Shown: one piece after another, positions 28,659-31,126 of the stretch
How positions within the stretch are numbered: the stretch's first letter is position 1
Layout of the letters: the number at the start of each line of letters is the position of its first letter
Assembly (NCBI RefSeq): GCF_041248615.1
Contig: NZ_CP158426.1
Strand: one strand, 5' to 3'
Length of the DNA stretch: 64,000 nucleotides
Source: Escherichia coli
GTDB lineage: Bacteria > Pseudomonadota > Gammaproteobacteria > Enterobacterales > Enterobacteriaceae
The notes under the pieces: generated by a model
The model's input: the letters and a program-made list of their open reading frames with translations, nothing else
Databases searched by the model: none
Told to the model about the DNA's origin: nothing
Made by a program: the position numbers and the translations under genes

Positions 28659-28732
28659 GCGGGCGTAGTTCAATGGTAGAACGAGAGCTTCCCAAGCTCT
28701 ATACGAGGGTTCGATTCCCTTCGCCCGCTCCA
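28659..28732 (+). tRNA. glyU: tRNA-Gly (CCC anticodon)
   Basis: 74-nt GCGGGCGTAGTTCAATGGTAGAACGAGAGCTTCCCAAGCTCTATACGAGGGTTCGATTCCCTTCGCCCGCTCCA; acceptor stem GCGGGCG/CGCCCGC, anticodon loop CTTCCCAAG, T-loop GGTTCGATTCC, encoded CCA. Confidence 0.95.
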
Positions 28733-28770: not shown

Positions 28771-29229
28771 TGTCAGCAACTTAAACAGTTACCTATTTAA
28801 TTTGCTTAGGAGTTCTACCATTGTGATCCGCCCTTAGTAACTGTCACGTTAAGTTACACGGTGAGATGACAGTATAACCTAACGTTGGCGGCAGTTGCAC
28901 CTCTCACACCGCGATAGCACAACGTGAAGATAAAGCCCATCCTGGCATTGTAATGTCATCGACAGACTGAACACACGCATTTAAGCCCGATGTGCGGCCT
29001 TGTGGCTGCGTAAACAGGTTTATGGTGATATTGGTCCTTGCAAACCATATGCAAGCTCTATCAGCGTTTCAGCCACGCTCCCAACGGGTACACGGTTATC
29101 CTGATAAGGTGTGATCTTTCTGACAATCTGATGAAGTCGCTACGCTCCCGCTTGTTGCTGTATCACCAACGGGGCTTTATGGTTTCTATTGTCTATAATA
29201 ATCTCACAATTCCCCTGCATGAGGTTGAT

Positions 29230-29436
29230 ATGACTGTTAGCTACAAGATTACTTATGAGCATAGAGACGGTGATCAAATTAGAATGGAAGAGGTTTTATT
29301 CCATTCAGAGCATGAACCAACAAAAGATGAAATTCATGATGCAGTAAGAAAAGATACTGTGAGATTTAATTCTCCATCTAATGGAGTAACGGCTGTTTCA
29401 GGGTTTAAAGTGATTTCGGTTGTCCCTGTTCCATGA
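29230..29436 (+). CDS. Small hypothetical protein (68 aa) in the accessory island
   Basis: Inside track ORF 29038..29436; internal ATG at 29230 has GAGG upstream and a TATAAT -10 about 35 bp upstream; product MTVSYKITYEHRDGDQIRMEEVLFHSEHEPTKDEIHDAVRKDTVRF... is acidic and soluble; low GC. Confidence 0.45.
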   Translation: MTVSYKITYEHRDGDQIRMEEVLFHSEHEPTKDEIHDAVRKDTVRFNSPSNGVTAVSGFKVISVVPVP

Positions 29437-29469: not shown

Positions 29470-29790
29470 TTACTTCTTAATATCGCCAGTGCATTGATAT
29501 TCGATAGTCACAAGTGTTTGCATACAACCAGATGAAGAAGGTTGTGAACATTGAGAAGTGAATCCACCAAAAGGCTCGGCTCCTGAATATCCCCAAGCGG
29601 CACAACGCGCTTTGGCTGCATTCATGCCTTGTTGTGGATCTACAACAGGACTTTCAAACATACCGTAAGAATAACTCATCCTAACTGTGCCGTCTGATTT
29701 GCTTCCACCAGTTGGAACGAGTTGTTTTTTTGTTGCACATCCAGAAATAATCAATGTTGAAGCAAGTAACAGCATTAAACTTTTGCGCAT
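29470..29790 (-). CDS. Putative Cys-rich lipoprotein (106 aa), unknown function
   Basis: Signal peptide MRKSLMLLLASTLIISGC with lipobox ISGC; four further Cys in the mature part; low GC. Confidence 0.6.
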   Translation of the reverse strand: MRKSLMLLLASTLIISGCATKKQLVPTGGSKSDGTVRMSYSYGMFESPVVDPQQGMNAAKARCAAWGYSGAEPFGGFTSQCSQPSSSGCMQTLVTIEYQCTGDIKK

Positions 29791-29934: not shown

Positions 29935-30102
29935 TTACGGTTTTTCAAACCGTCTAACTATTGTCGCTATTGAATGGGCAATAATAGCAAGAGGATTCAT
30001 TTCGTCATTGGAGGCAACAAAAAGTCGGTAACTGATAGCTACAACGAATGAAGCAATAACGAGAAAGCGGATAGTGCTAAGATGTTTTGAAGATAAATGC
30101 AT
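29935..30102 (-). CDS. Possible small membrane peptide (55 aa), speculative
   Basis: Manual translation MHLSSKHLSTIRFLVIASFVVAISYRLFVASNDEMNPLAIIAHSIATIVRRFEKP; one predicted TM helix; AGGGGG 4 nt upstream of ATG; the RBS lies in a CCCCCT/AGGGGG hairpin. Below the 60-aa track cutoff. Confidence 0.25.
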   Translation of the reverse strand: MHLSSKHLSTIRFLVIASFVVAISYRLFVASNDEMNPLAIIAHSIATIVRRFEKP

Positions 30103-30442
30103 AACGCCCCCTAAATGAATGTGAGGGGGATTAAATCATGCAAATTTGTTGTGTGCAATACTGGTAATTTATCCTAATAGTCTACTATTCACCTCAATCT
30201 ACGTCAACCAATATTTGATGTAGATTTGATTTTCTTTTAAAAACAATATTTTGCAATTTGTTGGGTTTTGGGGTTAGGTTGTTTTTTGGACGTTTCCATC
30301 AAGTGTAAAGATACGTTTAGCCTTCATAGTGAGTTCAGTTACTGTCTTTTTCTCTGAAATCGGCGCATACGTGATCATCGCTTAACGAGAAGAGCAGCGC
30401 CGTCAGGTCCATGCAGCGACAATTCTGAAATATCAGGAGGCA

Positions 30443-30994
30443 TTACGCTTCCTGCTCTTTCTTGATACGTTGCACCGTTTGTGTGCTGACACTGAAATCT
30501 TTTGCTACGCTCCGAATTGATCCACCATTCGCGAGAGCGGCAGCAATTCCCGCTCGATCAATTGCTTTTCCATTACCACGTTTTGCTATACGTCCAGCGG
30601 CCTTAGCTGCGGCGATCCCCTCACGCTGGCGCTCAAGCATCATTTCACGTTCCATTTGTGCCACTGCTGCAAGCACTGTGAGCATCATATTCCCTGCGGG
30701 AGAGTTCTTCCCTGTCTTAAAGTCTTCTTTATGGAAATGCACAGACACGCCGCGCTTTGTTAATTGCTCAACCGTTGCCAGTAGGTCGGCTGTATTACGG
30801 CAAAGTCGATCAATACTGTGAACATGCAAAACATCACCTTCCCGCACATAGTTCATCATTGCCTCAAACTGTGGGCGCTGGGTATTCTTGCCTGACGCTT
30901 TATCTTCAAAGACTTTATCAAGAGCTACTCCAGCTAATTGACGGTCTGTGTTTTGTTGCACAGTCGATACCCTAATGTATCCAATATTAGCCAT
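30443..30994 (-). CDS. Serine recombinase (resolvase/invertase family, 183 aa)
   Basis: N-terminal MANIGYIRVSTVQQNTDRQ with catalytic Ser in the YIRVST context, conserved DRLCRN, C-terminal HTH (SIRSVAKDFSVSTQTVQRIKK); AAGGA RBS. Confidence 0.85.
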   Translation of the reverse strand: MANIGYIRVSTVQQNTDRQLAGVALDKVFEDKASGKNTQRPQFEAMMNYVREGDVLHVHSIDRLCRNTADLLATVEQLTKRGVSVHFHKEDFKTGKNSPAGNMMLTVLAAVAQMEREMMLERQREGIAAAKAAGRIAKRGNGKAIDRAGIAAALANGGSIRSVAKDFSVSTQTVQRIKKEQEA

Positions 30995-31022
30995 TTTCTT
31001 TATTCCTTCTGTGTTGATTTGT

Positions 31023-31126
31023 GTGTAGTGATTATTGATCGTGTTGATTAGGTGTGTAAAGGACTTTTTTCACTACGAAATTCGAAGGTTTTTAGTGTGG
31101 TGATTTAGCCTGCTTTATCACTACAC
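31023..31126. promoter_or_regulatory. Candidate res/crossover-like site: four copies of a GTGTAGTGAT / ATCACTACAC motif in alternating orientation upstream of the recombinase gene
   Basis: GTGTAGTGAT at 31023-31032, CACTAC at 31071-31076, GTGTGGTGAT at 31095-31104, ATCACTACAC at 31117-31126; the last two form a 32-bp palindromic site with a 12-bp spacer. Confidence 0.4.

Follow-up and report, generated by a model that had tools for sequence, protein, structure and literature searches.

The messenger RNAs (mRNAs) of type I toxins are described in T1TAdb as carrying, shortly upstream of the Shine-Dalgarno (SD) sequence, an anti-SD sequence that pairs with it and keeps the primary transcript inert, and a type I system requires an RNA antitoxin (PMC8594479). 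A purely structural switch has been described for timP (PMC13000454). The subject of this report is a small open reading frame (ORF) on the minus strand of a 64,000-nucleotide (nt) stretch of Escherichia coli DNA (contig NZ_CP158426.1, referred to below as the window), where it lies in a phage-like island next to the tRNA gene glyU. Very probably, the stretch from 29935 to 30102 is a genuine E. coli gene that annotation has missed and that encodes a small membrane peptide, with its SD sequence and start codon locked in a conserved hairpin. The most fitting place for the locus is a new family of translationally locked small membrane peptides, specific to Escherichia and encoded on a phage-like island.

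Among described systems, type I toxin mRNAs with an SD-sequestering stem-loop (timP/timR, zorO/orzO, and tisB/istR-1 of enterobacteria and aapA1/isoA1 of Helicobacter pylori) resemble the small ORF in encoding a one-helix peptide of fewer than 60 amino acids, in having their own promoter and a structured leader of tens of nucleotides with anti-SD/SD pairing, and in their narrow taxonomic range and location on mobile DNA. Unlike these loci, the small ORF has no antisense or trans-acting RNA partner that could be found, and its peptide shows no toxin-family similarity in Pfam, NCBIfam, or PADLOC; at 52 to 55 amino acids and with a second, amphipathic helix, the peptide is also longer than TisB, ZorO, and TimP. 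The Hok/Gef family (hok/sok) is similar in peptide length (50 to 55 amino acids), N-terminal transmembrane helix, a block imposed by mRNA folding, and carriage on mobile elements. However, the small ORF has no Pfam or NCBIfam match, no overlapping leader ORF of the mok kind with an SD of its own, and no Sok-type RNA in Rfam scans, and its translation block would be a local hairpin whereas that of Hok/Gef is a 5'-3' fold-back. The small membrane proteins of prophage "morons" are likewise autonomous promoter-ORF units at the edge of phage-like islands, with different small ORFs in different strains, but morons usually lack an evolutionarily maintained hairpin lock on translation such as the small-ORF leader has. 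RNA thermometers (ROSE and fourU) share the pairing of the SD within a hairpin of the 5' untranslated region (UTR). Their stems are typically weak and mismatched, whereas those of the small-ORF hairpin are GC-rich and perfect and are predicted to remain closed from 20 to 50°C.

Four versions of the locus were found downstream of the junction between the end of a serine recombinase gene and the conserved block that precedes the small ORF, a junction present in 372 of 5,426 complete E. coli genomes (~7%), including the O26:H11 and O104:H4 lineages. The allele of the window, A-glyU, encodes 55 amino acids and occurs in ~100 genomes. A-thrW, found in ~170 genomes in an island next to the tRNA-Thr gene thrW, encodes 52 amino acids that are 60% identical to A-glyU and is annotated by the Prokaryotic Genome Annotation Pipeline (PGAP) as hypothetical protein WP_000550450.1. 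The C-type (MRFILSILKTCRTTITLAVIVTIIYLIYFTPRDKIDSLAIIVHAMATLTKKL; 52 amino acids, ~30% identity to the A-type) also lies at thrW. The B-type, present in 36 genomes and at glyU in the annotated copies examined, is an unrelated hydrophobic ORF of 64 to 69 amino acids (hhalign probability, 0.2 to 0.3%). An exhaustive HMMER search of 1.84 billion representatives, a word-indexed search, and a search with an A+C profile returned only the E. coli alleles of the small peptide, a match to a 1333-amino-acid protein (P0008) having been rejected as a spurious repeat match. Pattern scans of the genomes of 100,044 species, IMG/VR, and metagenomes gave only Escherichia copies, with other matches attributable to chance. 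These searches place the A/C family in Escherichia only. No match to the A, B, or C peptide was found in Pfam, NCBIfam (E up to 10), PHROGs, or PADLOC, and a literature search found no description of this locus. B-type ORFs (e.g., 3314-3523 of locus L017 and those of loci L033 to L040) have their own CACTCC/GGAGTG SD hairpin, carry no PGAP annotation, and always lie ~314 nt after the recombinase gene.

The leader of the small ORF is predicted to fold into a two-tier hairpin (Table 1). In the upper stem, the anti-SD CCCCCT (30129-30124) pairs with the SD AGGGGG (30112-30107) around a loop at 30123-30113, and the AUG (30102-30100) is paired as well, in the lower stem (30142-30135 with 30105-30098). 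An earlier note on this DNA, made from the sequence alone, had placed an AGGGGG ribosome-binding site in the 3' arm of a CCCCCT-loop-AGGGGG hairpin. This claim is borne out and proved to be an understatement, since the lower stem buries the start codon as well. The stability of the hairpin was compared with that of dinucleotide shuffles (z score in Table 1). In strains Combat11I9 and G3X16-2, the whole leader differs from that of the window only at 30127 (C to T) and 30109 (G to A), which are partners in the upper stem; the double change turns a C-G pair into a U-A pair, and either change alone would, by computation, cost 3 to 7 kcal/mol. Among 18 glyU-type copies from genomes and metagenomes, this pair is C/G in 15 and T/A in three, with no other combination.

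The SD-burying stem is predicted in every haplotype, and all four leader types keep the anti-SD/SD pairing. Other arm pairs among the alleles are CTTCCT/AGGAAG, CCTCC/GGAGG (in a shifted register), and CCCCT/AGGGG, while the C-type has the arms GATACC/GGTATC with an inner stem and the B-type has CACTCC/GGAGTG. Variation within stems is wobble compatible, the sole indel among B-type leaders sits in the loop, and in all variants the 3' arm of the stem is an SD-like purine run 4 to 9 nt ahead of the start codon. Covariation was judged by per-sequence folds and the clean double substitution rather than by a single column-wise model, which failed because the SD/anti-SD pairing slides by 1 to 2 nt between alleles. 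As far as sequence can tell, the hairpin is real and maintained by selection, and the mRNA shows the feature by which T1TAdb recognizes type I toxin mRNAs, an SD sequestered by a complementary anti-SD. In silico, the SD of the window has a probability of 0.011 to 0.022 of being unpaired between 20 and 50°C, and that of the thrW allele one of 0.011 to 0.072. Since this probability stays at 0.01 to 0.07 over the whole range, the hairpin would be a lock and not a thermometer, and the latter role was rejected. Leader mini-ORFs (AUG-AUU-UAA) were considered as coupling devices and dropped, as they have no SD and no conservation.

The 55-amino-acid ORF is present in the window as the earlier note described it. 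Its frame, whose lack of conservation among homologous sequences that note had named as part of a refutation, is kept in the thrW islands. The A-glyU, A-thrW, and C-type alleles are collinear without gaps over 52 to 55 amino acids at 60% and ~30% identity, and the C-type aligns with the A-type by hhalign with 96% probability (E = 4e-9). An A-I-I motif in the C-terminal region is invariant across alleles. In the small ORF, the ratio of nonsynonymous to synonymous change (omega, NG86 method) is 0.53 for the comparison with the thrW A-type and 0.38 for that with the C-type; the other frames give 0.65 to 1.5. Against the C-type, the proportion of synonymous differences (pS, 0.67 to 0.79) exceeds that of nonsynonymous differences (pN, 0.39 to 0.44) in this frame only, with omega at 0.65 to 1.1 in the two other frames, and over the last 17 codons omega falls to 0.14 to 0.26. 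Within the thrW A-type, seven leader haplotypes have ~11 variable sites in the 76-nt leader versus one in the 159-nt ORF, and the B-type ORFs show one synonymous change only. The case for a gene rests on such comparative evidence; a 55-codon ORF, which by itself is not unusual in DNA of 38% GC, and a promoter with 9 of 12 consensus matches are each within chance. What lies beyond chance is the combination of a well-spaced SD, the best promoter of the region ~70 nt upstream, a compensated stem pair, and a frame kept in diverged homologues. It is very probable from these comparisons that the small ORF is translated, with constraint chiefly on the hydrophobic character and the C-terminal helix.

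Several observations weigh against this interpretation. Less diverged DNA in the C-terminal part (71% nucleotide identity) may, along with selection, account for some of the similarity to the C-type there. A-glyU and A-thrW differ at 38 of 156 nt, and third positions are only slightly enriched for change, which together with the omega of 0.53 indicates weak protein constraint. In a permutation test with the two A alleles, the probability of finding no stop codon was 0.52, that of a BLOSUM score at least as high as observed was 0.06, and the joint probability was 0.03. Polymorphisms within alleles are mostly nonsynonymous (A17V, S18A, V20I, A46P, and M48I), and the thrW A-type carries an Asp within the hydrophobic segment. 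The glyU allele is without PGAP annotation in identical genomes, and the B and C forms are likewise uncalled.

The single hydrophobic helix proposed for the peptide in the earlier note is supported by both hydrophobicity and structure prediction. The best 19-residue Kyte-Doolittle window scores 2.05 at residues 13 to 31, within the range of 1.67 to 2.52 computed for sequences of Hok, TisB, LdrD, ShoB, and ZorO. AlphaFold2 predicts a helix from residue 3 to 33, a turn at D-E-M-N-P, and a second helix from 37 to 53, with a mean predicted local distance difference test (pLDDT) score of 77.5. The peptide is small (<60 amino acids) and hydrophobic with a predicted transmembrane helix, as type I toxins usually are. 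The C-termini of the alleles are charged (RRFEKP, TKRL, or TKKL).

The predicted promoter of the small ORF is the best sigma-70 site in the three variants tested (11.4 to 12.5 bits, with 12.5 bits in the window), and the C-type has the equivalent TTGACA-17-TAAGCT. In a consensus scan of the region, sigma-70 sites were no more numerous than in shuffles, and a 9/12 match alone is not beyond chance. The motif GGRTAAAT at the 5' end is common to A- and B-type leaders. The block that carries the promoter has diverged between islands by 3 to 5%, which is similar to the divergence of the recombinase gene. The palindrome that overlaps the -35 element could bind a protein, as an operator or a recombinase site, or could form a terminator-like hairpin on the antisense strand. 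Tn3-family resolvases repress promoters within res, and the recombinase adjoining the small ORF has a helix-turn-helix (HTH) domain. A lone third half-site of the palindrome lies at 31617-31625, ~1.4 kb away and beyond the recombinase gene, a count reached by 4 of 100 shuffles. In the B-type, the distance between the half-sites is changed by 3 bp, which, with few variants to compare, weakly favors a hairpin over a rigid protein site. An invertible promoter switch of the Hin/Gin/Fim type was rejected, as no inverted repeats flank the block and its orientation to the ORF is the same in all loci examined.

The RNA partner implied by the type I likeness in the earlier note, whether antisense or trans pairing, failed to appear as a conserved antisense promoter, as a duplex beyond those of shuffles, or as an Rfam antitoxin family in the window. 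On the antisense strand of the window allele, no promoter reaches the threshold of 9/12 matches, and position weight matrix (PWM) scores are at most 6.7 bits versus 12.5 bits for the sense promoter. Antisense promoter-like sites are not conserved in position, lying in the ORF of the thrW A-type and in the leader of the C-type and being absent from the B-type, and they are no more numerous than shuffling would lead one to expect. The site in the thrW A-type ORF (TTAACA-16-AATAAT, positions 5276-5303 of locus L002) has 10 of 12 consensus matches, and the palindrome over the sense -35 scores as an antisense-strand terminator in both A-type islands, where it has G.U instead of A.C pairs; in the thrW A-type the two would yield an RNA of ~240 nt. 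The antisense -10 element AATAAT of this site is the reverse complement of codons for the most conserved peptide motif, A-I-I-A, and the C-type codes the same residues with ATC ATC, weakening the antisense -10 box. A trans-encoded small RNA was sought as a nearby complementarity of at least 15 nt to the small-ORF mRNA. In an RNAduplex scan of both strands within ~3 kb on either side, the best energies matched the most extreme ones of the shuffled controls, and the top positions were not common to the islands. An inverted repeat of 17 nt (88%) between the upstream block and codons 23 to 28 of the ORF (30335-30351 and 30019-30035) was tried as a pairing segment and rejected; the complementarity is probably due to chance because it is absent from the thrW allele. 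Rfam scans at E <= 1 returned tRNA only, and the known type I families (Hok/Gef, Ldr, Ibs, TisB, ShoB, DinQ, ZorO, TimP; Sok, Sib, Rdl, IstR, OhsC, and others) gave no protein hidden Markov model or Rfam match. Of the designation "type I toxin-like," the small hydrophobic peptide and the SD and AUG in a maintained hairpin therefore stand, while an RNA partner and a toxin-family match were not found. The term describes the design of the mRNA fairly but is not an established classification. By analogy, a purely structural lock such as that recently described for timP is possible.

The explanation that we favor, with moderate confidence, is a translationally silenced gene for a small membrane peptide, belonging to an Escherichia-restricted orphan family with three alleles, on a phage-like island and with an mRNA built like that of a type I toxin. 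Sequence and conservation suggest that the small ORF would be transcribed from its own sigma-70 promoter, and the ~70-nt leader is predicted to fold into a stable two-tier hairpin that pairs the SD and AUG, as compensatory evolution supports. The primary transcript would be translationally silent at all physiological temperatures, and translation would require that the hairpin be actively opened, whether through processing, a structural switch, or a factor acting in trans. The product is predicted to be a helical hairpin of one transmembrane helix and a C-terminal amphipathic helix with the conserved A-I-I motif. Uncontrolled synthesis of the peptide may be harmful, as suggested by such tight repression in cis. 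A complete type I toxin-antitoxin locus, in which an unrecognized antisense RNA neutralizes the mRNA of a membrane-damaging peptide toxin, would share the canonical T1TAdb features of a small hydrophobic peptide and a short-range anti-SD/SD stem-loop. The candidate antisense RNA would run on the plus strand across the leader and end at the palindrome and T-run at 30196-30240; the terminator score of the palindrome in both A-type islands, the potential ~240-nt RNA of the thrW A-type, and the presence of the locus on a mobile island, a frequent home of addiction modules, speak for it. We nevertheless regard this as unlikely given that antisense PWM scores in the window do not exceed 6.7 bits, that antisense sites are misplaced between A-thrW and C-type, missing from B-type, and as frequent as in shuffles, and that trans pairing beyond shuffles, an Rfam antitoxin, and a toxin-family match were not found. 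In a nontoxic accessory membrane protein of the moron type (e.g., for superinfection exclusion or modulation of a host membrane protein), the hairpin would set low or conditional translation and the palindrome would be an operator for an island-encoded regulator, possibly the adjoining recombinase through its HTH domain. An SD with a probability of being unpaired of ~0.02 and a buried AUG are far tighter than ordinary tuning, and compensatory preservation in four leader types argues that leaky translation is selected against; no homology to known exclusion or regulatory small proteins was found. This alternative is somewhat unlikely. In its favor are a promoter and gene that form a unit of their own at the border of a prophage-like island, a slot that holds the unrelated B-type ORF in 36 genomes (typical of exchangeable cargo), the fast evolution of the peptide, and the operator-like inverted repeat over the -35 with its third half-site beyond the recombinase gene, for which Tn3-family resolvases are a precedent.

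It is improbable that the ORF is untranslated and its open frame incidental, the functional product being an RNA (a structured leader, a small RNA, or an element acting in cis on the yecR-family gene downstream). Start, length, and frame have survived ~50% nucleotide divergence in three alleles without an indel, pS exceeds pN in this frame only, hhalign links the alleles at 96%, an SD-like purine run correctly spaced from the start codon invariably forms the 3' arm of the stem, and no Rfam family matches. The frequency of 55-codon ORFs by chance in AT-rich DNA, the omega of 0.53 between the closest alleles with the marginal permutation test, the omission of the glyU allele by PGAP, and the near absence of synonymous variation within the thrW and B types, which could reflect RNA-level constraint or recent spread, would agree with an RNA product. 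The ORF is in any case not a leader for one particular gene, since the downstream context differs between the glyU and thrW islands. A holin-like or lysis-type peptide of a satellite-like island, silent until the island is induced, is very improbable. Its small size, one transmembrane helix, charged C-terminus, and tight repression, on an island with capsid and tape-measure-like genes, are compatible with such a role, but no endolysin or spanin is annotated or detected adjoining the small ORF in intact islands, no PHROG holin matches, and the promoter is its own, at the island edge and not within a late operon. A broader and quite speculative proposal, to which we give little weight, is that of a modular slot for silent peptides, in which a promoter and an SD-occluding leader, usually beside a serine recombinase at the edge of a 13.5-kb phage-satellite-like island, host interchangeable hydrophobic ORFs (the A/C family and the unrelated B-type). 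These would be kept off purely by mRNA structure without an RNA antitoxin and released by a structural switch or processing upon activation of the island or a helper phage. If true, E. coli would have a system of a kind new to it, in which a killer or exclusion peptide is locked in cis and has no antitoxin.

No organism has been searched for small proteins and type I toxins as thoroughly as E. coli, yet this family has been left unannotated or "hypothetical." The locus offers a clean natural case of a compensated SD/anti-SD base pair, and its leader architecture is reused for unrelated small ORFs. If the peptide is toxic, it would represent a new family of cis-locked membrane toxins tied to phage-like islands and would raise the question of how the lock opens without an obvious RNA partner; if it is nontoxic, it would still be a conserved small gene missed by genome annotation.

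Table 1. Positions of the small ORF, its control elements, and adjoining features in the window
Feature	Position	Strand	Details
Small ORF, 55 amino acids, A-type, glyU allele, MHLSSKHLSTIRFLVIASFVVAISYRLFVASNDEMNPLAIIAHSIATIVRRFEKP	29935..30102	-	TAA stop at 29937-29935
Hydrophobic, predicted transmembrane part of N-terminal helix, codons 11-31	30010..30072	-	Kyte-Doolittle 2.05 and AlphaFold2 helix 3-33
Stem-loop ACGGTTT-GAA-AAACCGT over stop codon	29937..29953	-	No U-tract; terminator scan does not call it
Predicted two-tier leader hairpin over SD and AUG	30098..30142	-	Minimum free energy -16.3 kcal/mol, z = -3.2; compensated change 30127/30109; alternative arms in other alleles
Inferred 5' UTR, ~70 nt	30103..30172	-	Transcription start inferred ~7 nt past -10
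Sigma-70-type promoter TTGACG-17-TAGACT	30179..30207	-	9/12 matches; top PWM score of region
12-bp inverted repeat AATCTACATCAA-N7-TTGACGTAGATT over -35	30196..30226	.	Kept in B-type with other spacing
Upstream block, recombinase gene to small ORF, carries promoter	30162..30382	-	~95-99% identity between islands
Serine recombinase, resolvase/invertase type, 183 amino acids	30443..30994	-	Pfam Resolvase 5.9e-39; PHROG DNA invertase 7.7e-62; synteny
tRNA-Gly(CCC) glyU	28659..28732	+	3' end is left attachment site (attL) of island carrying small ORF

The window is E. coli DNA and is identical over 11.4 kb to strain NRZ14408. In it, glyU lies downstream of xdhA and actS and is followed by AT-rich island DNA with, in order, a hypothetical gene, a YecR-family lipoprotein gene, a 650-nt unannotated gap, the recombinase gene, ~2.5 kb without genes, and IS1. 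The small ORF sits in the 650-nt gap, ~1.3 kb in from the tRNA-proximal end and inside the att repeats of the island. Its transcript probably runs on toward yecR, since the stem-loop at its stop codon has no U-tract. In other strains the intact island is phage-like and 13.5 kb long, with an exact 22-nt repeat of the tRNA 3' end at both ends, 13,544 bp apart. Replication-initiator-like, major head, and tape-measure-like proteins and a tyrosine integrase are encoded on it. Strain K-12 does not carry the island. The island of the window is a truncated remnant, most of it and the ETT2 secretion-system island being gone at IS1. The IS1 element (33521-34218 and beyond) occupies the site of the missing part and of the whole ETT2 type III secretion island, with yqeI left truncated, and this looks like an IS1-mediated deletion specific to the strain background of the window.

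The YecR-family gene (29470-29790, minus strand), which is a second one, and the 85-amino-acid hypothetical gene (29179-29436, plus strand) lie between the small ORF and glyU; they are variable cargo, as both are missing from thrW islands and B-type glyU islands. In strain AHB18, an IS3 insertion cuts the small ORF short after codon 35. The recombinase is the usual upstream neighbor, with the small ORF typically 310 to 340 nt downstream of its gene. This linkage is not obligatory, as some thrW islands (e.g., locus L004) have the promoter block and small ORF without the recombinase. At 4213-5330 of locus L004, another 183-amino-acid gene, on the opposite strand and matching PHROG 2578 of unknown function, replaces the recombinase, and in such islands the breakpoint falls exactly where the conserved upstream block starts.

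Beyond the recombinase gene, ~2.5 kb of AT-rich DNA (30995-33520; 33 to 39% GC) has no ORF of at least 90 amino acids and no PGAP gene. It contains iteron-like repeats (28- to 32-nt units spaced 59 to 60 nt at 31913-32026), an exact 23-nt tandem repeat (32207-32252), and a 15-nt motif in three copies (31517-31835). It is probably an origin or regulatory region, since the next gene of intact islands is replication-initiator-like. A second hairpin (30434-30454) on the recombinase stop codon is terminator-like on the antisense strand and is kept in A, B, and C loci; this and the palindrome could be two antisense-strand terminator-like elements that insulate the recombinase gene. A 34-amino-acid ORF (MITYAPISEKKTVTELTMKAKRIFTLDGNVQKTT; 30274-30378, minus strand) with no family match lies between the recombinase gene and the promoter, in the conserved block, and the B-type locus does not keep the second half of this ORF. 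Just past the recombinase stop, 83 nt at 30357-30439 match ~65 genomes of phapecoctavirus-type (phAPEC8-like) phages at ~79%. Several of these matches lie within a few hundred bases of record ends and others are internal, most of them unannotated there, and the stretch may be a shared recombination or cis-acting site.

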